From Thermoplasmatales archaeon SW_10_69_26 (GTDB lineage: Archaea > Thermoplasmatota > SW-10-69-26): a stretch of DNA of 64,000 bases. Below, one piece after another: positions 18,406 through 41,480 of this stretch (positions are counted from its first letter, which is position 1; every line of letters starts with the position of its first letter). The notes beneath the pieces were generated by a model. The model saw nothing but the letters and a program-made list of their open reading frames with translations. It ran no database searches and was not told the DNA's origin. The stretch spans positions 850-64,849 of the forward strand of contig PXUB01000037.1 in NCBI GenBank assembly GCA_003009755.1, given 5' to 3'. The position numbers and the translations under genes were made by a program.

Positions 18406-18443
18406 CGACGCACCACCCAGGGGGAGGACGGCGGGCCGCTGGC

Positions 18444-20621
18444 CTACGGGGACAAGCCCTCCCCCGGGCCACCGGAGTCGTCGTCAGCGACGGTCGAGGT
18501 GCCGCCGGGCTTGGCCTGCAGCCAGGGGTCGAACCGGACGTTGCTCACGCCCTCGTCGCTGTCGTCCTCGGTGACCGCGTCGCCGCTGCCGTCGGCCAAC
18601 GCCGCGGTGACCGGGTCCTCGAGCGGGTTCGAGGCGTCCAGGCTGGAGGGACCGTCGCTGGCGCCCCAGTAGTTGTCGCGGGCGTCCAGGGTCCCGAACA
18701 CGACCCGGCGGGCGTCGATGCCGTACCCGCCGTTGCCGGCGATCACGTTGTCGTGGACCTCGACCTCGTCGACCTCGGCGTCCTCGGTGAACAGCAGGCC
18801 GTGGTCGAGGTTGTCGCGCATCGTGTTGTTCGCGATCTCGATCGAATCGGAGCTCTCCCCGGTGGTCGCGTCGACGGCGGTACCGTTCCCGTTGCCGGTG
18901 AGGCGGTTGTCCTCGACGACCAGCCCGGGCGTGTCGCCATCGGCGACGAGGCCGAACCGGTTGCCGGTGACCGTGTTGTCCGCCACCCGGTCCCCCGAGC
19001 TTCCCAACGAGTTGAGGGCCCCGTGGGTGCCGGTGACGGTGTTGGCCTCGATCGTCGACCCCTCCGCGACCACGGAGACGATCCCGTCCCGGCCGTCGAC
19101 CACCGTATTGTCCCGGATGGCCACGTTGGCGGAGCGGAAGACGACGATGCCGTCGTGGTTGCCGCCGTCGTATCGCTCGGGGTGCGTCGTCACGTCGTTG
19201 CCCTCGACGGTGCCCTCGACGCTACTTACCCGGTCGCCGTCCAACCGGATGCCCTCGTCCCCGTGGTCCACCCGACTCTGGGTGACGGACACGGTGTCGA
19301 CCCAAGAGGTGAACACGCCCAGCCGATCGGCATCGATGGTGGTGTCGGTCACCGAGACGCGGTCGTTGGACGACCCGGACGGCCCGAACGCGATCACGCC
19401 GTGGGTGACCTCCACGAGACGCGCGTCCGTGACCTCCATCGATTGTCTCGTCGACGGGGTGGCGAAGATCCCTCTTCTGCCATCCGTGACGGTCACATCG
19501 CTCACCCTGACCTGCCCGACCTCGTCGATCTGGAGCCCGTCGCGCACGGTCTCGATCGTCACGTTCTCCACGCTGAGCGCCGTCCCGCCCTGGGCGTACA
19601 CGCCTTGGCCGTTGTGGGACAGGTCGAGGTTCTGCACGGTGACGCCGATGCTGTTCACCAGGCCGACGTACCCGGGCGAGGGGTCCATCTGGTTCCCGTC
19701 GAGGGTGATCCCGCTGGCGCCGACGAGGTAGTGGATGGGTCGGCCGTCGACGGTGTTCGAGGTGTCCACGTGGTGGATGCCTCTCGCCCAGAAGTTGTAG
19801 GTGTTCCCGGCCAGCGCGTTGTCCCGCATGGTGACCCGGTCGTCGAAGCGGAGGTCGACGCCGACGCGGTTGTCGAGGACCGTGTTGGCCTCGAGGAGGT
19901 CGGTTCCCGGGAACGGGTCCTCGGCGATGCCGAAGAAGCCGACGTCGTTGTCGGCGAGAGTGTTGTCCACGATGCGGGCCTCGACGCCGCCGGGGTGGCT
20001 GTGGGCGAGGATGCCCGCGTCCTGGTGGCCTTGGATCTCAAGGCCCTGGATCGCGACCGCGCGGGCCTCGAGGGTGAACCCGTTGTCCCCGTTCAGGTCC
20101 TCGACGCCGTCGCCCCGGACGACGACGGGGGCCTCACCCACGCTGGGCACCAGGAGGGGGAGGTCGAGGCTGTGGGCGCTGGCGATCGTCACGCCCGGCG
20201 TGGTGACGGTGACGGTCTCGGTGTAGGTGCCCGGGCAGACGGCGATCGTGGTCCCGGGGTCGGCAAGCGTCTCGGCGACCTGGATCCCGGTCCAGTCGGC
20301 GGTGGGGCACTCCTCGCGGTCGTCGTCGACGAGCACGGGCTCGTCCACGAGGGGGACCGGCGAGCTTTCGGGGTTCGTGGACGTCGTCTCGGCGCCGTCG
20401 GGCTCGAGCACGTCGGCCGGCGGCCCCCCAGCGACCGCAGGGCGAACCGAGACGATATCCTCGTACCCGTCCGTGGGGAGGTCCAGGCCCGGCGGGGCCG
20501 AGTCCGCCTCGGAGCCGGGGGCCGACCCGGCCGCGGCGGGGACGGTCACCAAGACGAGTGCTGCGGCGACCGCGAGCAGCATCCCTCCCGCAACGCGCGC
20601 CGCGACTGGGTTACGGGGCAT
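18444..20621 (-). CDS. secreted right-handed parallel beta-helix repeat protein (NosD/pectate-lyase-like fold)
   Basis: 725 aa. N-terminal signal/[35 protein letters not shown]. Many ~22-aa repeats with N/D-x-V/I-x-x-N turns (e.g. IANNTMRDN, VEDNRLTGN). Start overlaps the stop of the upstream giant gene by 11 nt. Confidence 0.7.
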   Translation of the reverse strand: MPRNPVAARVAGGMLLAVAAALVLVTVPAAAGSAPGSEADSAPPGLDLPTDGYEDIVSVRPAVAGGPPADVLEPDGAETTSTNPESSPVPLVDEPVLVDDDREECPTADWTGIQVAETLADPGTTIAVCPGTYTETVTVTTPGVTIASAHSLDLPLLVPSVGEAPVVVRGDGVEDLNGDNGFTLEARAVAIQGLEIQGHQDAGILAHSHPGGVEARIVDNTLADNDVGFFGIAEDPFPGTDLLEANTVLDNRVGVDLRFDDRVTMRDNALAGNTYNFWARGIHHVDTSNTVDGRPIHYLVGASGITLDGNQMDPSPGYVGLVNSIGVTVQNLDLSHNGQGVYAQGGTALSVENVTIETVRDGLQIDEVGQVRVSDVTVTDGRRGIFATPSTRQSMEVTDARLVEVTHGVIAFGPSGSSNDRVSVTDTTIDADRLGVFTSWVDTVSVTQSRVDHGDEGIRLDGDRVSSVEGTVEGNDVTTHPERYDGGNHDGIVVFRSANVAIRDNTVVDGRDGIVSVVAEGSTIEANTVTGTHGALNSLGSSGDRVADNTVTGNRFGLVADGDTPGLVVEDNRLTGNGNGTAVDATTGESSDSIEIANNTMRDNLDHGLLFTEDAEVDEVEVHDNVIAGNGGYGIDARRVVFGTLDARDNYWGASDGPSSLDASNPLEDPVTAALADGSGDAVTEDDSDEGVSNVRFDPWLQAKPGGTSTVADDDSGGPGEGLSP

Positions 20622-23600
20622 GGACGGTCACCTCGATTTGGCCCCGGTCCACGGCGCCGATCTCGTCCTCGACCGTGAGCGTCACGTTGTAGCTGCCGGC
20701 CTGCTCGAAGGCGTGGACGGGGGCGCCCGCGGTGCTGGTGGCCCTGTCGTCGAAGTCCCAGGCGATGGCGGTGATCGGTTCGGGGCTCGAGGAGGCGTCC
20801 ACGAACTCGACGGGCTCGCCGACGGTCACGTTCGTGGCGTTGGCGGTGGGCGCAGCGACGAGGGCGTGGGGGCGCGGCGCGAACTGGACGCCGACCTCCG
20901 AGAGGGGCGTGGGGGTGGTGCGGTAGGTGACGCCGCTGGTGGTGTTCGACGACTGGGTTCCGATCGTGAACGTGGGGAGGTCGTAGGCCATCCAGGCGTC
21001 GGCCTCCTCGATCATGCACCTTGCCTTCCCGTCCTCGGTCAGGTGGAGCTGGACGGTGATGGAGCCCCCGTCTCCGGTCGGTACCTGTTGCCACTCGACG
21101 ACGAAGGCCCGGTTGGGCTCCTCGCCGACCGTCGCATAGCGCACGTCCGCCGGATCCGGCATCGATTCCCTGGGAGCGTAGGTTTGCGCGCAGTTCACCT
21201 CGTGGTCGGGCCCCCCGTCGTTTTCGCGGATGAAGGCACCGCTGAGCATCTCCTGGTCCGTGCAGTTCCCGATGCACGTGAGCCCGAAGTCCAGCACCCG
21301 CACTTCGGAGTGGTCGTCCCCGTACCAGGTGAAGTTGAACGGGAGCTGGAGGGGGCCTGACGCGTCCGTGCTATAGACGAAGAAGTCCGTGGAGAGGTCC
21401 TCGAACGTGAGCGAGGTCCCGTCGCTGGTGTCGGCCCAGTCGAAGGGGATCTCGGTGCACGTGTACCCGCCCACGTCGGGCCCGGTGTCCTGGCATCGGG
21501 GGGCGCGCGCCGTGGCGTCGGCCGGTTCGCCCTCGCCGGCGTCGTTGACGGCGGTGACGTGGTACTCTCTCTGTTCAAGGTAGTCGAGGCCTCGTTCCAT
21601 GTGGTGGCGCTGATCCTCGTCGAACGCGGTGACGAGGGTCTGGGTCCCGTCCGGGTTCACTTCGTAGAGGCGGTACGCGGTGACGGGGCCGGTGCCGGGG
21701 TCGGTGGGGGCGCCCCACTGGATCGTGACCTCTCGCGGCTGACCCGGCGGGGGCTCATCGGCCGGTGAATCGAACCGGTTGGCTCCCACCTTATCTTCGG
21801 AATCGGTGACCTCCGTGAGGTTCCACACCGGGCCCGGAGCCGTGGATGCATCGGTACTGGGGACGTGGGGGAGGTCGATCTGGAAGCCGCCGGCTCCCTT
21901 CGGGATCCGGGAGGTGTCCGTTCCCCGGCTGCCGTCGTAGTCCGCGTACGTGTCGGTTCCGCCTTGGTCGAGCAGCAGGCCCGCCCCGGGTTTCTCGGTG
22001 CTGGCGACCGGGTGGGGACCGATGAACTCGCAACCGGCCACCGGGTACAGGCACACCCGGTCGAAGACGAGGGTCGTCTTCCGGGGTGACCAGCTGGCTC
22101 CGTTGGCGCCCTGCGTGGTGGCCTGGTAGGTGTCGTCGCCGGCGTCGTCGCGCAGGAACCCGGTGCCCGACTGGGCCGCGCCGCCGTTGGTGGCGACGTT
22201 CTTGGCCTCGTAGGTATCGTCGCCGGCCCGGTCGTAGAGGAACCCGTTGCCTCCCCTGTAGCCGCCGCCGTTGCCCGCCTTGTCGGCGGTGTAGCGGGTT
22301 GCTCGTCCGTTCTGAAGGGGACGAAGGTTAGCGGACTGGACCCGGCGCTTCCCCCGTTCACCGCTATGTCGTCCGGCCTCTCGAAGCTACTCGCGGCGTG
22401 GTAACCGTCGTCGCCGGCCCCGTCGACTAGGAAACCCAAGGCGCGTCCGTAGCCGCCCCCGTTGGACCACGAGCTCCCCTCGTACGTGTCGTTGCCGGCC
22501 ACGTCGACGAGGCTTCCGATGGCTCTCCCGAACGCTCCGGCGCCGTTGCTGAGTCCACCCCCGACGTAGCGGTCGTTGCCGCCTCCATCGAAGAGGAACC
22601 CGGAGTCGCCCTGGGAGCCTCCGTTGGTCGTTTGCCCGGTGGGGGCGAAGAGGCAGTTCCGCCCGGTGATGTACGCGTCGTCCCCGCCGGCGTCCGCGAG
22701 GTAGCCCTGCCCGTAGATCGCGGCACCGTTCACCCCGTACTTGCAGGTTGTGTAGGTCTCGTCGGCGTCACCGCCGTCGTAGAGGAACCCGAACCCTCCG
22801 AAAAAGGCCCCCCCGTTGGTGGCGTAGATCGGGGCGTGGTAGGTGTCCTGGCCCACCCGGTCAACCAGGAACCCCGCGGGTGTGGTATCGGTGGATTCGA
22901 GGACGCCGCCGTTGGCGCCCTCTCCCCGCTGGGCCTCGTAGCGGTCGTCGCCGCCGGTGTCCACCAGGAGGCCGCTTCCCTCGAGGACTACGGCCCCGTT
23001 CACGCCTTGGAGGGGGGCCGTGTAGGTGTCGTCGGCTTCGCCGTCGTCGACGAGAGCGCCTACGCCTAAGGCGCCGCCGCCGTTCACGCCATAGAGGCCA
23101 CCGGTGTAGCGATCCTCGCCCTCGGTGTCGACCAGCAGGCCGATCCCGTGGACCCAGCGGGGTTGGACGCCCAGCTGGCCCATCACGTTTGCGCCGCCGT
23201 TGACGCCGCGCGATCCTCCGTCGTAGGCGTCGCCGCCGTCGTGGTCGACGAGCGTGCCCAGGCCGCTGGCGCCGCCGCCGTTGACGCCCTTGCCCCGGAC
23301 CTGGTATGTGTCCGATCCGTCGCCGTCGACGAGCAGGCCCGCGCCTAGCGCGTGGCCGCCGCCGTTGGTGCCGAAGTCGCCGGCCTGGTAAGCGTCCTGG
23401 CCGTCGGCGTCGACGAGCAGGCCGGTGCCGCCCAGCGAGGCGCCGCCGTTGACGCCCAGCGAGTTCAACAGCTTGAAGCAGCCCTGGTAGCCCTGGTAGT
23501 CGGGACGGTCGCCGGCGAGGGTGGCCTCGAGCGTGGCGTGGGTGTCGACGATCCCGTAGCCGAGGTCGGCGTTGCAGCCGTCCTCGGGGGGCGCGGGTTG

Positions 23601-26222
23601 GGCGTTGTCCCGGAGCAGTTGGCGGAGTTGCTTGTTCGTGAGGTCGTCGGCCTGGCTCCAGGCCAGCGCGGCGGTGGCGCTGACGTGGGGGGCGGCCATG
23701 CTGGTACCGTTGAGGACCCTGTACCCCGAGTCATCGCAGTAGTAAGGACCCTCACCGCGGTAAGGGCCAAGGAAGGGAGGCTCGTCTTCGACGCAGGCAG
23801 GGAGGGTGCTGAGCACGGCATCGCCAGGCGCGGCCAACTCGGCGTTGGGTCCATAACTGGAGTACCCGCACCGGGTCGCGTTCTCGTTGGTGCACGTGAC
23901 CGCGATCACCTCGTCGTAGGCGGCCGGGTACCTCACGCAGTCGTAGCACCCACTGTTGCCGGCGGCCGCGACCAGCAGGGCCCCCTCCTCCCAGACGTCG
24001 TGGACGGCCTGACGGATGGCGCTGTGGTCCAGGGTGGTGGTGATGCTCATGCTGATGACGTCCCCGCCGTTTTCGACACACCAGTGGAGCCCTTGGACCA
24101 CGTCGCTGACGAAGCCGCGACCGTCCTCGTTGAGGACCTTGGCGGCCATCAGGCCGGTGTGGGCGGTGCCGGCGACGCCTGTCTCGTTGTCGATGGTGGC
24201 GGTGGCGATGCCGGTGACGTGCGTCCCGTGGCCGTAGTCGTCCATCGGGTCCTCGTCGTCGTTGTGGAAGTCGTGGCCGGCCAGCAGGCGGTCTTCGGCG
24301 ATGTCCTCGTGCGTGTAGTCGACGCCCGAGTCCAGGATGCACACGGATTCGGAGGTGTCGCCGTTGGTGGTCTCCCAGGCGTCGGGTGCGTTGACCTGCT
24401 GGGGAGCATATTGGTCGTCGTAGAGCGGGTCGTTGGGGGTGGAGGCGGCGTGGACTTTCGCGTCGGGTTCCACGTAGCGGACGTTGGCGTCCTGTCGAGC
24501 CTCGGCCGGGAAGGTGACCGGATCCTCGGCTTCGACGACGAGGATCTCCTGCTCGGGCAGGGTGTCGAGGACGGTGGCGTTCTCGTAGGTGTCGCCCACC
24601 GACAATCCGGGGTTGTCTTGGTAGCCGACGAGGTAGCGGTCGGTCATGGCCTCGTTGCTGGCGGCCATGCCGGTGGGGTTCTGCCGGGCGGTCTCCTCGA
24701 TGCTCTCCGGGACGTGGCCGGCCGCGGTGTCGGGTTGGTAGGTGTCGTCCCCGTGGGCGTCGATCAACAGGCCGCTGCCGGCGTAGCCGCCGCCGGTGGC
24801 GCCGCAACCGGCGGTGCTGACGTAGGTGTCGTCGCCGCTCACGTCCACGAGGGCGGCGGCGGTGCCGGTCTCGTTGAGGTCGCACTCAGGGGCCTCTTGG
24901 AGGTTGGAGCCGCCGGCGTTGTTCTCGTAGGTGTCGTCGCCGCCGGCGTCGACGACGAGCGCGTAGTCCTCGGTGTACGTGTCGTCACTCTCGCCTAGGT
25001 CGATCGCCAGCGCCGGCTGGATGTCCACGGGCGCGGTGGTCGTCACCGGCGTGGTTTCGGCGAGGGCCTGGTGGAGGTCGAGGGCGGTGTCGAGGACATC
25101 CTGGCGGGCGCCGAACACCTCGGCCAGGTCTAGGTTGGCGTCCGCGTGGGCGTCCGAGAGGGACTGGCGAGGGGTTTCCTCGAGCTTGGCGGGGTCGACG
25201 GGGAGCCTTGGGATCGCTTGGTCGGTCTCCCAAGGGTCCTCGTCCCCCATGGTGAGGTCCCCGAACTTGTCGTCGTACTGTGCGGGCGTCATGGGAGCCA
25301 TGCCCAGCCCGGCGGGGCCGTCGGTGTCGGCCGCGCGGGGGTGCAGTTGGGCCAGGTGGTCGGTGTCGGCGTCGGCGTAGGCGTCCTGTGTGGCGGTCTC
25401 GAAGGCGAGGAAGGCGTCGAGGTAGTCGGTGAGGGCCTCCCGCAGCGTCGGGGGGAGGTCGTCGAGGTGATCGAGGCTCTGGCGTTGGTCGAGGGTCGGC
25501 GTGGCGTCGTGGCGGTGGACGAGCTCGCGGGCGGCCTGGCTGGGCGAGGCGTGGTCCGGCGGGGTCACGTCGACCGGCTCGATGCCGAGCGTGTCGGCCT
25601 GGTGGCGTGTGGACTGTTGGGCGGATCGGATCGACCGCTCGACCTCGCTTGTGGTCTCGTCGTCGGCGGTGGCCAGCAGGTCCTCGGCGACGTCGAGGTG
25701 GGCCTGCTGTTGGGCGAGATGGGAGGTGTCGGTGTCGATGCGGTCCCGGCGGTCCTGCACCGCCGTGTGGGCGGTCGCGAGGGCTTGGTCGCGGTTGGTG
25801 AGGCTGGAGTCGTCCTCGATCGCCGTGAGGGCCCGGGTGAGGTCGACGTTGGCCAGCTGGGCATCGAGGACCTCGCCCAGGCCCGGGTCCAGGGGCCCGT
25901 TGTGAGCGAGGGCTTGGCGTTGCTCGAACGCGGTGGCTGCCGCTGTGAGGGTCTTCTCGGTCGGGGCCGCGGTGGGATCCTCGACGGTAGCGTCGAGGCG
26001 GTCGGCCAGATCCATGCTGGCCTGCTGGGCGTCGGGCAGGTCCACGGGAACCTCCGCCGCATCCGATCTGGCTGTGGGGTCGATGGTTTCCGTCTCCGTG
26101 GGGGCCTCGTCGGTTCCGGGGGTGAAGACCCCGGCGCCGAGCCCGCTGATGGCGGGGGAGAGGGTGACGACGAGGGCCAGGGCGAGGACGGTGAGCGTGG
26201 AGTGGGTTGGGTTCGTGGTCAT
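20611..26222 (-). CDS. giant secreted subtilisin-like (S8) serine peptidase with VNGG/DxY tandem repeats and C-terminal FN3/PKD domains; apparent frameshift near 22290-22385
   Basis: ATG at 26222 with signal peptide ([27 protein letters not shown]). S8 catalytic triad context: D in ILDSGVD, H in HGTHVTG, S in GTSMAAPH. More than 20 copies of a ~27-aa G-x-NGG-x3-G-x-G-x-L-x-D-x2-G-x-D-x-Y repeat. Reading continues in a second frame (ORF 20611..22056), which carries more repeats plus PKD/FN3-like sequence (...[35 protein letters not shown]...). Confidence 0.65.
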
Positions 26223-27649
26223 GGGGACGTGCCTCCTGGGGTGGGTCGGTCGTGGTCGAGTTGGGCGCCGACGAGGCCCTTGGGGACGACCGTTTTGTCG
26301 GTGCCGGTGCCGCCCTCGAAGTCCTCGTAGGTGTCGGTGCCGTTCCCGTCGTACAACAGGCCCACACCGACGGGGACGTATTGATCAGTGACGAGAGAGT
26401 CGTAGTTGCCGTCGGTGGCGTGGCCGTTGACGGCGGTGACGGTGGCCTCGTAGCGGTCGTTGCCGTCGAGGTCGACGAGCAGGCCGGCGCCGGCCAGCCC
26501 GCCGCCGTTGGTTCCGTCCGATCCTGCGGTGTAGGTGTCGTGGCCGTCGGCGTCGAGCAGGGCGCCCGACCCGCCAAAGGCCACGCCGCCATTGGTCCCG
26601 GCTCCGTCGGCGAGGTAGGTGTCGTCTCCGTCGGCGTCGAGGAGGAACCCGTGGCCGCCGAAGTTGGCTCCCCCGTTCACGCCGCTGGCGGTGCCGACGT
26701 AGGTGTCGTTGCCCCCTTCGTCGAGGAGGGCCCCGACCCCGGAGTGCACGGCGCCCCCGTTCACGCCGCCCCTCCGTTTACCCGTGGGATCGTCGAAGAT
26801 GGCGGGATCGCCGTACTCGTCGTCGCCGTCGCCGAGGTCGACGAGCGCGGCGGGGTTGAGCCGGTAGACTCCAGGAATGGCCACCAGGTTGCTGGTTCCA
26901 CCGGCGTTGTTGTGGTAGGTGTCCTCGCCCCCGACGTCGATGGAGAGTCGGACGTCTTCCGTGTACGTGGCATCGCAGCCCTCCACGTCGAGCGCCAGCA
27001 CGCCGACGGAACCGACGATCGGATTGTCGGGCGTCTCGATGACGAGGGGCTCGCACGCGCTGGCGGTATCCGCCGGCATCCCGGGAGTGGTTTGGACGGC
27101 TCTGTGGAGGTCCTGGACCTCGTCGAGCAGACCGTTTCGGGCGGCGAAGACGCTCCCTGGGTCGCTGTCGGTGGAGGCCGCGCCGAGGACGAGGAACGCG
27201 TCGATCACGTCGGTGAGCTCGGTGCGGAAGGGCTCATCAAGGGTGTCCAGCTCGCGGACCTGGTCCAGGTCGTCGTCTGCAAGCGTTGCGTCGTGCTGGT
27301 CCGCGAGCGCGAGCACGGCGGCGCTCGGCGAATCATGCTCGATCGTCGGAAGGTCCACCGCGAGCCCATCGCCGAGCGTGGAGGCCTGGTGCTCGCCGAC
27401 GAGCTTGCCCAGCTCGATCGCCTCGGCGAAGGAGACGTCCTCGCCGGCCTCGTCCTGGAAGTGCTGGATCGCGGTCGGGAGCCCGTCGTAGGCCTCGACG
27501 GACGCGTCGGCGGCCGGGGCGCCCGAGCCCGACGACGATGGGCTCGGGGAGACGGCGGCGGTGGCCGGGACGGTGACGAGGGCGATCGCGGCGGCGAGCA
27601 CGGCAAGGCGGCGGGGCGACTCGATGAGCAAGCCTGCGGCCTCCGTCAC
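26219..27649 (-). CDS. secreted VNGG/DxY-repeat protein, paralogue of the N-terminal module of the giant protease; Tat-type signal
   Basis: 476 aa, GTG at 27649. SPRRLAVLAAAIALV looks like a twin-arginine signal. The helical region is homologous to the giant protein (LADQHDATLADDDLDQVRELDTLDEPFRTELTDVIDAFLV vs [40 protein letters not shown]). About 8 VNGG repeats. Stop overlaps the giant gene ATG (ATGA). Confidence 0.7.
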   Translation of the reverse strand: MTEAAGLLIESPRRLAVLAAAIALVTVPATAAVSPSPSSSGSGAPAADASVEAYDGLPTAIQHFQDEAGEDVSFAEAIELGKLVGEHQASTLGDGLAVDLPTIEHDSPSAAVLALADQHDATLADDDLDQVRELDTLDEPFRTELTDVIDAFLVLGAASTDSDPGSVFAARNGLLDEVQDLHRAVQTTPGMPADTASACEPLVIETPDNPIVGSVGVLALDVEGCDATYTEDVRLSIDVGGEDTYHNNAGGTSNLVAIPGVYRLNPAALVDLGDGDDEYGDPAIFDDPTGKRRGGVNGGAVHSGVGALLDEGGNDTYVGTASGVNGGANFGGHGFLLDADGDDTYLADGAGTNGGVAFGGSGALLDADGHDTYTAGSDGTNGGGLAGAGLLVDLDGNDRYEATVTAVNGHATDGNYDSLVTDQYVPVGVGLLYDGNGTDTYEDFEGGTGTDKTVVPKGLVGAQLDHDRPTPGGTSP

Positions 27650-27727
27650 AGGGAGCGGGCCAGTGCACGGTTAAGCGTTGCTTGACAAAATCGCATATTC
27701 CTCGCCCGCGAGGGGTCTCGCGACGCC
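27556..27727. repeat. direct repeat copy A (promoter + first ~30 codons of the 476-aa gene)
   Basis: 134 bp near-identical to 28835-28968 (2 mismatches read). Similarity continues, more diverged, for about 40 further bp. Confidence 0.7.
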
Positions 27728-27855
27728 GCCACGACCCGAGGATCCGCGTAGCGAGGCCCGCCGGGCCCTCGCCGCTGGCCGCACGTCGGCGAGCACGGGA
27801 ACGTCCAGGTCTTCGACGACGTCCGGTAGCCAGCGAACCCTCCCGGGCCCGAGCG

Positions 27856-28380
27856 TTACCTGTCGAGGTGCCGGCGAGCCAGAACCTCCAGCACCCCACC
27901 CTCCCAACCGCGGGCTTCGATGATCTCGTCCACGAGACGACGAGCCTGCGTCGTCGACAGCTCGCCCCGCTTCCTCGACTCGACGATCACGGCCACCGAG
28001 ATGCGAAGCCGGATGCCGTGCGCCATCGCCTCGTCCCTCAGCCCGGCGATCGCCCGCGCGTCGTCCGTGACAAGGACCTCGGCCTTCGACTCCCGGCAGG
28101 CCTGCAAGCAGGCAGCCTCCGCTGGCTGAACCCGGTTGGAGACGAGCGCTTCCATCGTCTCCGTAGCCTGGATGGAGAACACCTCGATCCCGCCCCCATC
28201 GATCCGAGACAGAACGCGCTCGGCCGCGGCGGCCTCCTCGTCGTCGAACCCGGCGAGATCCTCGAGCTCGGAAACCACCCTTCCCACGGTTGCGAGGTCG
28301 ACGAACGCGATCCGGTCGAGCAGATCCACCAGCTCGAGCGTGAGGAGCGCACTGGTGTCAGCAACGACACCCCGACTCAT
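27856..28380 (-). CDS. PIN-domain protein (VapC-like toxin candidate)
   Basis: 174 aa. N-terminal VVADTSALL resembles the PIN beta1 Asp motif, with later conserved acidic residues. ATG overlaps the stop of the upstream RHH gene (ATGA). Family assignment is by motif only. Confidence 0.5.
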   Translation of the reverse strand: MSRGVVADTSALLTLELVDLLDRIAFVDLATVGRVVSELEDLAGFDDEEAAAAERVLSRIDGGGIEVFSIQATETMEALVSNRVQPAEAACLQACRESKAEVLVTDDARAIAGLRDEAMAHGIRLRISVAVIVESRKRGELSTTQARRLVDEIIEARGWEGGVLEVLARRHLDR

Positions 28381-28661
28381 AACCCATCGTCGAAGGAGCG
28401 TTCGGCGACGTCCGTGTAATAGGCCACCGTCTTCGCTTCCTCGAACCCCAGGATCTGGACCAGGTCGTCGAACCCGATCTTCCCCTCGGCGAAGCGCTCG
28501 GATGCAAGCCCGCGGATCTCCGAGAGGCTTTGCTCCTTGTCGAGGTAGTCCTGAAGCGCCTCCCGAACGAGATCGGACTTGTTCGCGTGCTTCTCGGCCG
28601 CCAGTTCCTGGAGCCGCCGCGAGAGCTCCTCTTCCAAGCGCACCGTGAGGACGCTACCCAT
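28377..28661 (-). CDS. ribbon-helix-helix (CopG/RHH) antitoxin-like DNA-binding protein
   Basis: 94 aa. N-terminal RHH pattern LTVRLEEELSRRLQELAAEKHANKSDLVREALQDYL. An unusually AT-rich putative promoter lies immediately upstream (28662-28700). Confidence 0.65.
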   Translation of the reverse strand: MGSVLTVRLEEELSRRLQELAAEKHANKSDLVREALQDYLDKEQSLSEIRGLASERFAEGKIGFDDLVQILGFEEAKTVAYYTDVAERSFDDGL

Positions 28662-28793
28662 GAAGGCGTATTACGTTGTCATACTTTCATAAGCGTTTCG
28701 GCGCGTTCGGCGATGTTGGAAAGCGAGGTCGGCCACCGACCCAGCCCGGCGGAGGTAGGGTGTGACCTGGCCCCCGGCCCTCGCCCGAGCGGG

Positions 28794-28928
28794 TCAGCTC
28801 CGGGGAGATCGCTCGTCCTCCGCGGGGAGGAGGTCGGCGGTGGCCGGGACGGTGACGAGGGCGATCGCGGCGGCGAGCACGGCAAGGCGGCGGGGCGACT
28901 CGATGAGCAAGCCTGCGGCCTCCGTCAC
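28794..28928 (-). pseudogene. duplicated 5' fragment (44 codons) of the 476-aa repeat-protein gene
   Basis: Encodes MTEAAGLLIESPRRLAVLAAAIALVTVPATA then diverges and stops. It lies inside direct-repeat copy B. Confidence 0.55.
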
Positions 28929-29018
28929 CGGGAGCGGGCCCGTGCACGGTTAAGCGTTGCTTGACAAAGTTGCTTGACAAAAGCACAACTATTCCACGCC
29001 CGTGAGGGGCCGACCCCC
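28835..29018. repeat. direct repeat copy B, with an internal 13-bp tandem duplication (gttgcttgacaaa x2 at 28956-28981)
   Basis: See copy A. The tandem 13-mer is absent from copy A. Confidence 0.7.
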
Positions 29019-29088
29019 GGAATATCCGATACTGTTCACCAGAAACGCCTAAGGCCGCCCCCGCCCATCCCCCGACCGCAACCTCCCC

Positions 29089-30762
29089 ATGAGAAGCGCC
29101 GAGATCGTCGTTGGAGCCCTCCTCCTCGTCTCCGGGACGGCCATCCCGGGCCTCCCCATCCTCGAGGACGAGACCGCGACCAACTCCTCCGTCCGGGCCG
29201 AGGCCGTCTTCGAGACCGCCCAGTACGCCGGCCCCGCCGAGATCGAGGCGGACGGCGGCGCATTATGGAGCGAGGGGAGCCTCGAGGCGACGATCGTCGC
29301 CGAGTCGGTGACGGTGACCCGCTACGTCTGGGAGGGCGCCCACGTCGACACCTGGACCGGCCAGGAGGACGGCCTCTGGGCCTCGACGCACCATGGCAAG
29401 GGGACCACCGAGCGCTCGGCGACGACGTACGAGAACGCCACCATCCGGATCGACACGACGTCCGAGGCCGTGATGTCCGCCTGGCCCAACGCCACCCGCG
29501 GGCCCACGACGTTCGCCGCCGACCTCGCCGCCGACGAGACCCCGCCCATCGTCGCCTCCCCCAGCGGGACCATCCTCTGGCTGCTGTACTCGGGGTTCGA
29601 CCACCACGTCGAGGGACCCCTCTTCGCCCTCGGCCACAACGGCGGCCGTATCCACGACGCCTGGGTCGAGGACGCGGAGATCGAGCAGCTTGGCATCCAA
29701 GGCGCCCTCGACCTGAACGTGCTGGGCGGTAAGGTTACCGTGGAGACCGACGACGGGACGGACACCTATCGGACCGGCGTCGAGCAGACCGAGACCGAGA
29801 CGGACGTCCACGAGAACACGGTCAGGACCAAGCGCGTCCACGCCCTCGTCCACGTCACCGACGCCACCTTCCGGACGTCGATGGGCGAGGCCGAGAGCGT
29901 GTTCCTCGCCCAGGAGCCCACCTGGACGATCAACGGGAGCCTGCGGATGGACGCCCGGGAGGGCGAGGTCCGGACCGGTGCCGAGGACGCGACGCTCGAC
30001 AACGACACGCTCGCCGTCCTAGGCAACACGACCCTGGACCTGGCGGCCCAGGGCGAGACGCCGGACCCCTCGGACCCCCAGCCGTACCCGCGGGAGGAGC
30101 GCCCGACCCGGCCCATCGAGGCCGAGATGACCAGCGACGCCGACCAGGTGAGCGTCGACGGCCAGACGCACGACCTGCCGGAGCCGTTTCTCGTCATTGC
30201 CACGCAGAATCCCGTCGAACAGGAGGGCACCTTCCGGCCGCATCCACGAGCACATCCTGGAGGCCGGCATGGCCCACGTCCGCCGCGTCGCCCGCGACCT
30301 CGAGATCCCGGTCTCGTCGGCCATGTACCACTTGCGCGTGCTCCGCGAGGCTGGCCTGCTCGTCCGGGTGAAGCGCGAGGGGTACACCGTCTACTTCTCG
30401 TGCGACCGCTTCGACGTCGACGAGAAGAAGCGTCTGGCCCTGCTTGCCGGCGGCCCCCGCCGCGATATCGCCTCCACGCTCGCCGAGCGGGGCGCCATGA
30501 CCCAGGCGGCCCTCGCCGAGCTGCTCGAGGTGAGCCAGTCGACGGTCTCCAGGCAGATCGCCAAGCTCGAGGAGGCCGGTCTCGTCGAGGGGAACGGGAA
30601 CCACGGCATCCGGTACCGGCCCGCCGGCCTGCTTCGGGAGTGGCTCGGGCTGGAGAGCGAGGGCGCAGGTGGGGCGGGATCGGGCGGCGAGTGAGGGCCT
30701 GGCCGGGCCCACCCCCGTTCATCGTCACCGGCTGGTTCTGCCGGCCACGTGAACGTTCTTGA
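29089..30762 (+). CDS. secreted hypothetical protein whose 3' region is chimeric (in-frame MoxR-like fragment, then out-of-frame run into the ArsR gene); probably disrupted
   Basis: ATG at 29089. Signal peptide [21 protein letters not shown]. About 340 coherent acidic residues. From about 30130 the frame encodes [31 protein letters not shown], homologous to this genome's MoxR ([31 protein letters not shown]). After that the translation becomes Arg/Pro-rich frame noise. Confidence 0.4.
30130..30234 (+). pseudogene. MoxR AAA+ ATPase gene fragment (~35 codons)
   Basis: Homology to the central region of the intact MoxR at 40509-41480. No ATPase N-terminus or C-terminus is present. Confidence 0.5.
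30197..30694 (+). CDS. ArsR/SmtB-family winged-helix transcriptional regulator, apparently 5'-truncated
   Basis: ...[54 protein letters not shown]... matches the ArsR HTH. A second wHTH-like segment ([41 protein letters not shown]) follows. There is no ATG; only a TTG at 30197, directly after the MoxR fragment. Confidence 0.5.
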
Positions 30763-30843: not shown

Positions 30844-31150
30844 TTGGTCTGGCTCAAGGAACCCAAGTTCCACGACGAGCGGGACCGCCTGCTCCGCCAA
30901 CGCGTCCTCCACATCGACGCCCTCGAGGAACGCAAAGCCATCCTCGAGCCCCTCCTCGCGGGGTTGGCGTTAGAGGACGAGCCGGCGCACTGGTTGATGA
31001 GCATCCCCGGGTGCCGGTGGTACCTGGCGATGTACATCCTCAGCGAGGTCGGCACCATCAATCGGTTCGACAGCGTGGACGCGTTCAAGAAGTACAGCGC
31101 GTGCTGTCCCCGCAAGCAACCCACGGGCGGCCGGCAGGACCCGTACGGGG
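30844..31150 (+). pseudogene. IS110-family transposase C-terminal fragment
   Basis: LMSIPGCRWYLAMYILSEVGTINRFDSVDAFKKYSACCPRKQPTGGRQ matches the conserved IS110 C-terminal motif (L.SIPG.G...A......G...RF.S.....Y.G..P....SG). No DEDD N-terminal domain. Confidence 0.5.
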
Positions 31151-31170
31151 TGGTCCAGCATGGGCCGCTG

Positions 31171-31400
31171 TCAAGGCAAGCAGGCGGACGGATCCTGATT
31201 GAACAACCAGGCGAACGCCTGAGCCCACGCCTCGACCTCTTCTCTCAAGGCGTTCCTCGACGAGCGTCTGCGGAACGGGCCGATCCGTGCTTTGAGCAGG
31301 CCAACCCAGGTTTCCACCCTGTTCCGAACGCCGCCCGACGTGACTTGGCCGTTTCGCGGTCGAGGACGGGGCCGACCCGCCCCAGCGGGCCTTCTGCGAG
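31171..31400 (-). pseudogene. second IS630/Tc1-family transposase remnant (~60 C-terminal codons)
   Basis: ...VRNRVETWVGLLKARIGPFRRRSSRNALREEVEAWAQAFAWLFNQDPSACLP* is about 93% identical in DNA to 17973-18150. This copy keeps the TGA stop. Confidence 0.55.
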
Positions 31401-31745
31401 GAGGACGGCCACGCCGAGCACCAGGCCCCGACCCGAGCGGCGACCGCGTAGCCCTGATCGCTCCCGCGTCCCCCGCCTCCAGCGAGCGGCGTTTCACCGA
31501 CCGAGCCACACCGTTTCCCGATCGGCCCAATCGGCTCAAGTGTCCCCCAGCCGAGTCCCGGTCGAGGTGACCGAGGACATGAGGACACGACCGATCGAGG
31601 ACCACGCCGCTCTCGCCCGCCCTGGGTCAGTGGGGCGAGGCCCCGAGGAACCAGAGCAGGGCGGTCTTCGCGATGGAGACACCGTCTCGCATCCGGGTCC
31701 GCCGTCTGTTTTCGTCTTTCCCGACTTCCACGGTTGCGGTCATCC

Positions 31746-32657
31746 ATGATCACGTGCCAGGAGATCACGAAGAGCTACGGGGAACACGTCGTCCTCGCGT
31801 CCGTCAACCTCGATGTGCGGCGGGGCGAGACCTACGGTCTGCTCGGCCCCAACGGGGCGGGGAAGACCACGACGTTCAAGCTCGTCCTCGGCCTCGAGGA
31901 TCTCGACAGCGGTCGGGTCCTGGTGGGGAACAGGGACGTCGACAAGGACCGGGCGAGGTTCCTGGCCGACGTCGGCTACGTTCCCGAGGTCGTACCCGTC
32001 GAACCCCGCAAGACGGCCCGACAGAACCTGCGAGACGTCGGCCGATTGTACGATGTCGCCTCCCAGGAACTCGAGGACCGCATCCCGGAACTGCTGTCGT
32101 TCGTTGGCCTATCGGGGACAGGGGGCGATCGCGTCACCACGTTCTCGAAGGGGATGCGCCAGCGACTGGGGATCGCGCGGAGCCTGCTCCACCGTCCCGA
32201 CCTGTTGCTGTTGGACGAACCGTTCAGCGGGCTCGACCCCGAGGCCCAACGAGAGCTTAGACGTCTCGTCGAAACGCTGGCCTCGGAGGGACTGGCCTTG
32301 CTGATCGCGACCCATCGCCTGGCGGAGGCCTCCGAGATGTGTGACCGGGTCGGGATCCTCCACGAGGGACGCCTCCGTCAAGAGGTCCCGCTCGATGACC
32401 GGTCCCGGGAGAGCATCCACGCCAACTTCCTTGCCCCCGTCGGCGAGGAGGTCCTGGCGGCCGTGAACGATCTCGACGGCGTGGGCGCTGTCGAGCGGGG
32501 GAACGGGTGGGCTCGGATCCTCGCCGACGACGATTTGGGCGTCTCCCAGGTCCGAAGCATCCTCCAGGGGAAGGCCCGTCTCACCCGATACCGGAGCCCG
32601 AAACGGGAGCTCGAAGGTCTCTACGACCGCGTCACCAGCGAGGGGTCGAAGGCATGA
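31746..32657 (+). CDS. ABC transporter ATP-binding protein (ABC-2 type)
   Basis: ATG at 31746 (MITCQEITKSYGEHVV...). Walker A GPNGAGKTT. Signature LSGGQRK-like region FSKGMRQRLGIA. Walker B LLLLDEPFSGLD. Confidence 0.85.
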   Translation: MITCQEITKSYGEHVVLASVNLDVRRGETYGLLGPNGAGKTTTFKLVLGLEDLDSGRVLVGNRDVDKDRARFLADVGYVPEVVPVEPRKTARQNLRDVGRLYDVASQELEDRIPELLSFVGLSGTGGDRVTTFSKGMRQRLGIARSLLHRPDLLLLDEPFSGLDPEAQRELRRLVETLASEGLALLIATHRLAEASEMCDRVGILHEGRLRQEVPLDDRSRESIHANFLAPVGEEVLAAVNDLDGVGAVERGNGWARILADDDLGVSQVRSILQGKARLTRYRSPKRELEGLYDRVTSEGSKA

Positions 32658-40508: not shown

Positions 40509-41480
40509 TCAGGCCTCGCCTCGCGAGTACGCGGTGGGCGGCTCGACGTCGCCGATCGCGGCCTCGACGACGTCGGCGTCCTCGGTGCCCTCGATCACGT
40601 GTTCCATGTCGAGCACGATGCGGTGCGCCAGCGCGTCGACGGCCAGGTCCTTGACGTCGTCGGGCGTCACGTAATCGCGGCCGCGGGTCATCGCGAGCGC
40701 TCGACTCAACCGCAACAGGGCGAGGTCCCCGCGCGGGCTGGGGCCGACGTCGACCGCCTCGTGGGCGCGGGCGGTGCGCACGATGCGGGCGATATACTCG
40801 ATGATCGCTTCGTGGACGAAGATCTTGTCCTCGACGACGCGTTGCAGGCGTTGGAAGGTCTGCATCGAGATGACGGGCTCGACGTCGCCGCTGGGGTCGT
40901 TCTTGCTCCAGTCGATGCGGCGGCGCATGATCTCGGACTCGTCGTCGAGCGAGTCGGGGTAGCCCATCTGCAGGCGCACCAGAAAGCGGTCCATCTGGGC
41001 CTCCGGCAGGGGGTAGGTGCCCTCCTGTTCGATGGGGTTTTGCGTGGCGAGCACGAAGAAGGGCGAGGGGATCTCCATCGTGTCGCCCTCGATCGTGACC
41101 TGGCGCTCCTCCATCGACTCCAGCAGCGCGGATTGGGTCTTGGGCGGGGCGCGGTTGATCTCGTCGGCGAGGACGACGTTGGCGAAGATCGGGCCTTTCT
41201 CGAGCTGGAACTCGCCCGTCTTGGGGTTGTAGATGTTCGTGCCGACGATGTCGGCGGGTAGCAGGTCGGGCGTGAACTGGATGCGGTCGAACTCGCAGCC
41301 GACGGCTTGGGCGAACACCTTGACGAGCAGCGTCTTGCCGAGCCCGGGGTAGTCCTCGAACAGGACGTGCCCGTTCGCGAGCGCGGCGGCCAGCAGCTTC
41401 TCGACGGTGTCGGGGTGGCCGACGAACACGTCGTTCACGGTCTCGCGGATCTGGGTGCACTTGCGGGCGACGCGTTTCAC
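40509..41480 (-). CDS. MoxR-family AAA+ ATPase
   Basis: 323 aa from GTG at 41480. Walker A GHVLFEDYPGLGKT. Walker B VVLADEINRA. MoxR signature FFVLATQNPIEQEGTYPLPEAQMDRF. Confidence 0.9.
   Translation of the reverse strand: MKRVARKCTQIRETVNDVFVGHPDTVEKLLAAALANGHVLFEDYPGLGKTLLVKVFAQAVGCEFDRIQFTPDLLPADIVGTNIYNPKTGEFQLEKGPIFANVVLADEINRAPPKTQSALLESMEERQVTIEGDTMEIPSPFFVLATQNPIEQEGTYPLPEAQMDRFLVRLQMGYPDSLDDESEIMRRRIDWSKNDPSGDVEPVISMQTFQRLQRVVEDKIFVHEAIIEYIARIVRTARAHEAVDVGPSPRGDLALLRLSRALAMTRGRDYVTPDDVKDLAVDALAHRIVLDMEHVIEGTEDADVVEAAIGDVEPPTAYSRGEA

Follow-up and report, generated by a model that had tools for sequence, protein, structure and literature searches.

How do bare two-gene toxin–antitoxin (TA) modules, whose patchy and scattered occurrence in the chromosomes of prokaryotes is known, change place without the vehicle of a mobile element? 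Such moves have rarely been documented, and the question is raised by a locus in Thermoplasmatales archaeon SW_10_69_26. The stretch that we analysed, hereafter the window, comprises 64,000 nucleotides (nt) of contig PXUB01000037.1 (assembly GCA_003009755.1, positions 850 to 64,849 of the forward strand), with a mean GC content of 69.7%. An earlier note on this DNA had described two genes, for a ribbon-helix-helix (RHH) protein and a PIN-domain protein, between direct repeats of the 5′ end of a neighbouring gene, and it had implied a haloarchaeal host; in this last respect it was mistaken, as the window comes from a high-GC Thermoplasmatales metagenome-assembled genome (MAG). Its DnaJ is identical to PSG96593.1 of this MAG, in which the 174-aa protein of the PIN type is PSG96600.1, and the MAG contig measures 80.9 kb. 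In our view, the locus is probably a non-autonomous TA cassette, lodged in the slot that separates a regulator gene from the gene for a secreted repeat protein, and one that moves from one paralogous secreted-protein gene to another through homologous recombination, with direct repeats left behind.

The cassette and the gene that follows it are read from the minus strand, and in the direction of transcription one finds repeat copy B, a 134-nt spacer, an AT-rich promoter, a gene for a protein of 94 amino acids (aa), a 174-aa gene, a 119-nt flank, repeat copy A, and the rest of a 476-aa repeat-protein gene (Table 1). The cassette DNA between the repeats amounts to 1,098 nt (27737-28834). A repeat search paired 27546-27694 with 28825-28973 (149 nt, 95% identical without gaps, spacing 1279), and within this pair an in-register core of 134 nt (27556-27689 against 28835-28968) differs at two positions, 27650 and 27662, both of which fall between the TATA-like box and the GTG start codon. 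The 94 coding nucleotides at 27556-27649 are identical in both copies and constitute the longest exact repeat. Beyond the core, upstream of the promoter, the copies remain more weakly similar as far as 27736 (copy A) and about 29011-29018 (copy B), and the whole repeat thus measures about 181 nt. The promoter in copy A consists of TTTGTCAAGCAAC followed by the TATA-like box GCTTAAC about 25 nt ahead of the GTG start, and the promoter 17-mer TTGTCAAGCAACGCTTA occurs twice in the 64 kb, both times in the repeats, with no occurrence expected from shuffled sequences. An exact scan with this 17-mer also returned 47 loci in metagenome contigs, which were rejected as chance matches without similarity to the window. 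The open reading frame (ORF) that begins in copy B has the same first 31 residues as the 476-aa protein, MTEAAGLLIESPRRLAVLAAAIALVTVPATA, and then diverges to a stop, while the 13-bp tandem duplication of copy B doubles the promoter-upstream motif TTTGTCAAGCAAC, which is conserved in related loci. Thus, most of what the earlier note had reported on this arrangement holds, including the near-identical direct repeats, the 13-bp duplication, the two genes coupled by ATGA between the repeats, and the AT-rich promoter; copy B does keep the start of the neighbouring gene before diverging to a stop, but the shared codons number 31 and not 30.

The same note had proposed that the orthologous locus of related genomes be compared for the presence of the insert, and this comparison turned out as an insertion would predict. 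In a close relative, S2 (JGI 3300046057, contig Ga0496809_00371, 22.6 kb, with stretches numbered L077 and L079), the regulator (95% aa identity) and the 460-aa orthologue of the 476-aa gene are adjacent, 245 nt apart, with one repeat copy and no TA genes. This single copy (L077 9699-9890), to which copy A is orthologous, aligns to both window copies (A, 27545-27736; B, 28823 onward); its left side continues as the left flank of copy B, and its right side as the gene after copy A. The 476-aa gene and its S2 orthologue are 92-100% identical at the nucleotide level from -87 to the stop. S2 does hold the cassette, with 95.4% nucleotide identity over 625 nt, about 9 kb away on the same contig. There its neighbours are a NosD-like gene ahead of it and, directly following, a 488-aa paralogue of the repeat-protein gene, and the signal-peptide tract occurs on both sides of it as a direct repeat of 60-69 nt (L079 8731-8799 and 9988-10056). 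Despite the different loci, the left junction of the cassette is identical in the window and in S2. With respect to the cluster that includes the 460/476 gene, the TA genes are upstream in the window and downstream in S2, and the rest of the cluster is collinear at 87%. (We name the types of secreted repeat-protein gene by their sizes in amino acids, 460, 476, 488, and 444, the 460 type of S2 being the orthologue of the 476-aa gene of the window.) The 460 and 488 genes of S2 are 100% identical from +12 to +102, 93% identical up to +190, and about 50% identical elsewhere, and this identity of the paralogues at their 5′ ends would be a ready substrate for homologous recombination.

Further contigs show the cassette next to other neighbours, or the neighbours without the cassette. 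In the related contig L027, the toxin gene and 3′ flank are 95-100% identical to ours in every 60-nt segment down to 27741, where identity falls abruptly to 52-58%; the gene downstream is a third paralogue type, about 40-80% identical to that of the window (about 55%), and the contig stops at the toxin start. Another related contig, L080, has the 5′ end and promoter of the L027-type gene next to the regulator, without TA genes. The window-type junction, in which the TA flank is followed by the 460-type promoter, recurs at 97% in L082 and L083, which come from two further metagenome samples; each of these contigs ends within copy A on one side and about 40 nt short of copy B on the other. The 3′ flank is 95-98% identical between the window and L027 as measured and, by eye, near-identical in the S2 cassette. 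By contrast with the left junction, the apparent right limit of the cassette varies. In the window it falls at GGTCGTGGCGGC (about -100); a comparison of L027 with the empty site of L080 puts it at about -50, and one of L027 with the S2 488 locus puts it just after the TATA box. The cassette flank ends in the 12-nt GGTCGTGGCGGC, a sequence that the S2 empty site natively possesses as well. A constant left junction combined with a variable right border fits crossovers at different points within a tract of homology.

The substrate of this recombination would be the tract that the paralogous genes have in common, namely the promoter-proximal region and the signal-peptide codons. A circular copy of the cassette carrying one such tract could enter by a Campbell-type single crossover or, equally possibly, the cassette could enter by gene conversion with overlapping homology arms, and either route would duplicate the tract. 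Both routes also predict the observed pattern of borders, the homology having fixed ends and the crossover being free to fall at any point. The downstream copy would keep the target gene intact and expressed, while the upstream copy would be left as a promoter with a 31-codon stump, free to decay; the two repeats could, in turn, allow excision. The composition of the cassette agrees poorly with more familiar vehicles. The 1,098 nt contain the two TA genes and no recombinase gene, and we found no terminal inverted repeats joining the cassette ends. What would define a transposon or insertion sequence (IS) is absent, as there is no transposase, there are no terminal inverted repeats, and the duplication is about 181 nt rather than short; nor does the cassette resemble an integrative element, since no contig has a tyrosine or serine recombinase in or beside it and the right limits vary. 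A homology-driven insertion, however, corresponds to what is observed, with two copies of the segment in the window and one at the orthologous site of S2. The window contains no tRNA genes, which excludes a tRNA-type attachment site; Rfam gave no match in the window at the gathering score, nor in 27400-29200 at E<=1, and a structured RNA in the 3′ flank was ruled out, as this flank folds no better than shuffled sequences (z=-1.41). Of the earlier proposal, insertion with a long target duplication or capture by recombination between repeats, the insertion is supported by the S2 empty site, while a transposition-type staggered cut is disfavoured because a 181-nt duplication is far too long, and homology-driven recombination accounts better for the locus.

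Several points weigh against this explanation. No circular or excised form was seen, and the event may have been a gain in the window or a loss in S2. If a circle had come from the cassette version of S2 or L027, the promoter following the cassette would be of the 444/488 type. Both window copies have a promoter of the 460 type, so the immediate donor of the window cassette is not among the sequences found. The upstream repeat of S2 lacks the promoter and codons 1-11, for which the model needs a later deletion. Distant relatives of the cassette (59-61% toxin identity; contigs L028 and L029) stand in unrelated contexts and not beside repeat-protein genes, and the related contigs number only about six, all of them metagenomic. 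Moreover, a simple model does not predict that the core of the repeats should be near-identical (two differences in 134 nt) when the outer 45 nt of copy B have decayed. The divergence of the copies is indeed uneven, with several substitutions, the 13-bp duplication, and a deletion of about 55 nt concentrated outside the core (28969-29018 against 27690-27736); it is also in this outer part that copy B, set against the empty site of S2, shows the tandem duplication, additional substitutions, and the loss of about 55 nt. The contrast between core and outer part could be due to gene conversion of the core, and the uneven decay suggests that such conversion between the copies is ongoing. In addition, the repeat copies within one genome have common variants without counterpart in the orthologous copy of the other strain, which suggests concerted evolution.

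The constant left junction at two different loci is also what one would expect if a recombinase supplied in trans inserted the element site-specifically at a fixed point, after codon 31, with the element bringing a replacement promoter and 5′ end. The target gene is intact, with a full 5′ end following the cassette, and a remnant of an IS110-family transposase lies 2 kb away (30844-31749). Nevertheless, we hold such a recombinase to be unlikely: no contig has one inside the cassette or adjacent to it, S2 lacks the IS110 remnant, and the right-hand limit differs between contexts, whereas site-specific events give fixed ends. Furthermore, the promoter that follows the cassette in L027 is not element-borne but belongs natively to L080, a relative with an empty site. 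We also think it rather improbable that the TA genes are passengers whose contexts changed through unequal crossing-over, deletion, and gene conversion among tandem paralogous clusters of a repeat protein, an S8 protease, and a beta-helix protein, copy B then being the stump of a deleted upstream paralogue. It is true that the paralogues are mosaic, with common converted 5′ tracts, that the 3′ end of the window NosD-like gene resembles a 1274-aa gene of S2 (76%), suggesting a past rearrangement of the cluster, and that the region shows other damage in the form of a frameshifted S8 gene and a disrupted regulator. However, as the TA genes are on opposite sides of the cluster, no single deletion turns S2 into the window or the window into S2; the left flank of copy B runs unbroken into the sequence left of the S2 single copy, as insertion there predicts; and the L027 cassette is 95-100% identical to ours next to a neighbour gene with only about 55% identity.

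A wrong joining of reads through the repeated promoter and signal-peptide segment seems very improbable to us, even though the window comes from a MAG and contains a foreign patch of 70 nt (30166-30236) that is absent from an otherwise identical contig. That contig, L001, is an independent ENA assembly (k119) of the region; it is 100% identical to the window over 25522-30165, spanning both repeats and the TA genes, and the longest exact repeat, of 94 nt, is shorter than the k of 119, so the arrangement is not an assembly ambiguity. In fact, L082 and L083 show the junction between the TA genes and the 460-type promoter in two other samples, and S2 independently has a repeat-flanked cassette. 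Relocation by homologous recombination is thus the explanation that we favour. A more ambitious form of it, which we regard as doubtful and offer only tentatively, is that the cassette is a recombinase-free selfish element with a portable homing arm, made up of a promoter and signal peptide, that lets it enter any gene of the secreted-protein family, in the same genome or across species, without inactivating its target. The basis for movement across species is the occurrence of 95-100% identical cassettes beside genes that are 40-80% identical.

As predicted from families, fold, and gene layout, the module is an RHH/PIN-like type II TA pair with a COG2405/DUF3368 toxin. The toxin start overlaps the antitoxin stop by 4 nt, and a co-oriented pair of an RHH gene and a toxin gene is present in all relatives examined. 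The 94-aa protein, which the earlier note had taken for an RHH protein, matches Pfam RHH_1 (E=2.6e-9, residues 5-42) and also an NCBIfam RelB-like model, at 4.4e-7 but under that model's cut-off. For the 174-aa protein, which the note had assigned to the PIN domain, scans of Pfam and NCBIfam gave nothing significant; the match to Pfam PIN (PF01850) has E=0.33 and 12 bits against a cut-off of 23.6, and phmmer found no match in the PDB. Given these results of the direct family and structure searches, its PIN fold was established by model and profile. An AlphaFold2 model computed from 8 sequences (pLDDT 91.6, pTM 0.87) retrieved with Foldseek, as its 25 best PDB matches, PIN domains or PIN-containing proteins, with probability 1.00 and with TM scores on the target of 0.55-0.72 for stand-alone PIN domains; AF0591, PAE2754, SMG6, VapC4, and SSO1118 are among the top fold matches. 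A profile built on 50 homologues, on which residue conservation was also assessed, matches in the PDB the PIN domain of MJ1533 (3i8o, E=0.002), aligned through the D, E, and D positions. Among these homologues, D8, E38, and D106 are invariant and D107 is conserved in at least 90%, and a distal fourth Asp was not identified at the usual position; R157 and W159, in an extra C-terminal helical part (residues ~129-173, the DUF3368 region), are invariant as well. Hence, the assignment to PIN stands as regards the fold and the three invariant acidic residues and fails as regards the Pfam PIN family, the protein being probably of the COG2405/DUF3368 type. In precomputed database annotations, the exact 174-aa protein and all 7 homologues have PF11848 (DUF3368) matches, and a scan of the 2025 Pfam was without that family even at E<=10.

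The COG2405/DUF3368 group belongs to the VapC-like branch of the PIN superfamily and consists of predicted toxins, normally paired with UPF0175 and with 2-5 conserved acidic residues, for which SSO1118 (PDB 2mdt) is listed as a structure and with which the antitoxin UPF0175 has been reported exclusively (Matelska et al. 2017, PMC5499597). The window toxin resembles this group in its precomputed PF11848 matches and in having 2mdt among its fold matches; it differs in its partner, which here and in every close relative is an RHH protein and not UPF0175. In fact, the partner protein has no match to UPF0175 (PF03683) at E<=10. The pair would thus add a new member to a group already known, unusual in that RHH takes the place of UPF0175 as partner, and its gene content is ordinary. 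The toxin subfamily is small: at E<=1e-3 it comprises 69 of 1.84 billion cluster representatives. A scan of viral contigs and a tblastn search of plasmids with the toxin gave no match. The toxin also resembles the PADLOC candidate defence family PDC-S70 (E=1.8e-7), and a defence role of the module is therefore possible.

In VapBC-type modules, the antitoxin has an RHH or AbrB domain and the toxin is a PIN-domain RNase. The window module is like them in its two small co-oriented genes, with the antitoxin first and a 4-nt overlap, in the RHH domain of the antitoxin, in the PIN fold of the toxin with conserved D, E, and D(D), and in a palindrome within its own promoter; it is unlike them in that the toxin falls below the Pfam PIN threshold and has extra C-terminal helices with the invariant R157 and W159. 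The palindrome, GTATGAC-N3-GTAATAC at 28668-28684, is imperfect, its core is conserved in S2, L082, and L083, and it may be considered a candidate RHH operator. In the same promoter, TTATGAAA stands at about -31 to -24 from the antitoxin ATG, and its sequence and spacing would fit an archaeal TATA box and a leaderless mRNA. The TATA-like elements of both the TA promoter and the promoter of the 476-aa gene lie roughly 21-31 nt upstream of the start codon, which is consistent with archaeal leaderless transcripts in both cases. The motif TTGTCAAGCAA is found directly upstream of the TATA-like box of the repeats (window positions 27676-27688 and 28955-28981), and it is kept in the repeat-protein gene promoters of five related loci, as TTGCGAAGCAA and TTGCCAAGCAA in the two most distant, although the flanking sequence diverges; the comparison covered L077, L079, L027, L080, L078, and L081. 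The 13-bp duplication of copy B doubles precisely this motif, which is probably a BRE (B recognition element) or a regulator site. The palindrome of the TA promoter includes TTGTCA on the opposite strand.

Table 1. Features of the TA cassette and of its immediate surroundings, in window coordinates
Feature	Position	Strand	Remarks
476-aa secreted repeat-protein gene	26219..27649	-	target or neighbour of the cassette; orthologue of the S2 460-aa gene
Repeat copy A	27556..27736	-	functional promoter and codons 1-31 (signal peptide) of the 476-aa gene
Parts of repeat copy A	core 27556-27689; outer 27690-27736	-	outer part ends in GGTCGTGGCGGC
Cassette 3′ flank	27737..27855	-	non-coding; always ends ...GGATCCTCGGGTCGTGGCGGC
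Toxin gene, 174 aa	27856..28380	-	PIN-like, probably COG2405/DUF3368 group (PSG96600.1); from precomputed PF11848 matches, model, and profile
Antitoxin gene, 94 aa	28377..28661	-	N-terminal RHH domain
AT-rich TA promoter	28662..28700	-	41% GC; 0.04% of 39-mers are as AT-rich
Cassette-specific upstream spacer	28701..28834	-	left junction: CCACCGCCG followed by ACCTCCTCCCC
Truncated 44-aa ORF from copy B	28794..28928	-	signal peptide and 13 unrelated residues
Repeat copy B	28835..29018	-	same promoter and codons 1-31, then cassette DNA
13-bp tandem duplication	28956..28981	-	GTTGCTTGACAAA twice on the plus strand; within the outer part of copy B
Membrane-anchored helix-turn-helix (HTH) regulator, N-terminal part	29089..30165	+	divergent; 566 aa in S2; left border of the insertion slot

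The mode of insertion that we propose can be compared with systems that are better known. In Campbell-type integration, a single crossover of circular DNA leaves an insert bracketed by direct repeats of a host segment, and "minimal mobile elements" are exchanged by means of flanking homology in naturally transformable bacteria. The window cassette is similar in that a host segment is directly repeated on its two sides, in lacking a recombinase gene, inverted repeats, and a short target-site duplication, and in that an empty site has a single copy of the segment; its loss by recombination between the repeats would be possible. It differs in being archaeal and in using a short tract (60-190 nt) that is common to paralogues, so that several loci would be open to it, and no circle or transfer was seen. 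The e14 element and phage 21 of E. coli insert in icd and carry a substitute gene end; they have an integrase gene, recombine at a short core site, and give rise to a second copy of the gene's 3′ end. As in these, a long (>100 nt) and near-identical duplicate of a gene end flanks our insert and the interrupted gene stays functional, but the cassette has no integrase, duplicates a 5′ end with its promoter, and has crossover limits that vary. In chromosomal integrons, TA cassettes are mobile within variable gene arrays and are thought to counter deletions; a small TA module present as an apparently mobile cassette in a variable gene array is what the window shares with them, although its cassette has its own promoter and lacks an attC-like site, an integron integrase, and a cassette array. 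Thus, the embedding of the module may be seen as a variation on known homology-driven insertion, in which the repeats are a promoter and signal peptide common to paralogous targets, and for which an empty and a second site are documented.

Some observations concern the neighbouring genes. The 476-aa protein belongs to a paralogous family without a Pfam model, and against the contigs of species representatives, among which the source MAG is not included, it gave only distant matches (28-41%) in repeat domains of unrelated phyla. In the public annotation, the repeat-protein gene begins at TTG 27631 (470 aa); the alternative GTG 27649 gives 476 aa, lies about 25 nt past the TATA-like box, and yields an N-terminus with SPRRLAV, resembling a twin-arginine signal. 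In the 488-aa paralogue of S2, a 1-nt insertion puts an upstream ATG out of frame. The S8 protease/PKD gene of the window (20611-26222) is split by a frameshift into overlapping ORFs of 1521 and 481 aa, with a change of tblastn frame from -3 to -2 at 22293-22296; S2 has a single ORF of 1870 aa there, and the split may mean that the gene is a pseudogene, or it may stem from an error in sequencing. The 3′ end of the window NosD-like gene together with the adjoining sequence (18420-18569) matches the 3′ end of the 1274-aa beta-helix gene of S2 (L079 14971-15381) and not that of its 705-aa orthologue in S2, which may be the trace of an ancient recombination or deletion event involving beta-helix paralogues, exactly where S2 carries the TA cassette.

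On the other side of the cassette, the patch at 30166-30236 encodes a MoxR/AAA_3-like peptide; it replaces about 160 nt of the regulator gene, namely the transmembrane segment, and breaks its frame. The regulator gene is intact in S2 and in L001, and the patch was not copied from the MoxR gene of the window itself (41013-41081, 65% aa identity). The gene may truly have become a pseudogene, or the MAG may contain a chimeric join at this point. The IS110-family remnant, which lies beyond the regulator gene, matches Pfam Transposase_20 over residues 49-99 only, and S2 has succinyl-CoA ligase genes at that place. Other small pairs, candidates for TA modules, were seen close to the cassette in relatives: a 90-aa gene with a 114-aa gene of weak PIN similarity (E=0.0018) in S2 (L079 15643-16349), and, adjoining the cassette of L028 whose identity is 61%, an 87-aa gene with a 109-aa gene of weak ParE similarity (E=0.0023; 1391-1989). 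The small gene pairs that occupy the same slot in L080 and L078 are small-HTH-like with only weak matches and were not counted as further TA modules.

What does the locus tell us about the presence and spread of TA modules? Our literature searches found no description of this locus or mechanism. The module is predicted probably to behave as an addiction module, and, as has been suggested of TA cassettes in other variable arrays, it could counter-select deletions from its position at the 5′ edge of a mosaic and damaged cluster of paralogues for a repeat protein, an S8 protease, and a beta-helix protein; such a location, bordering a group of genes that tends to recombine and to suffer deletions, suggests a reason for which the TA genes are retained. 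The locus also provides a natural case, in a salt-crust archaeon of an uncultivated lineage, in which the site is found both filled and empty and the junction recurs at another insertion, and this combination suggests that short tracts of homology in paralogous genes serve as the vehicle. If the cassette does carry a portable homing arm, this would constitute a general and so far undescribed route for the spread of TA modules in archaeal chromosomes, and the spare upstream promoter in copy B might also drive the TA operon.

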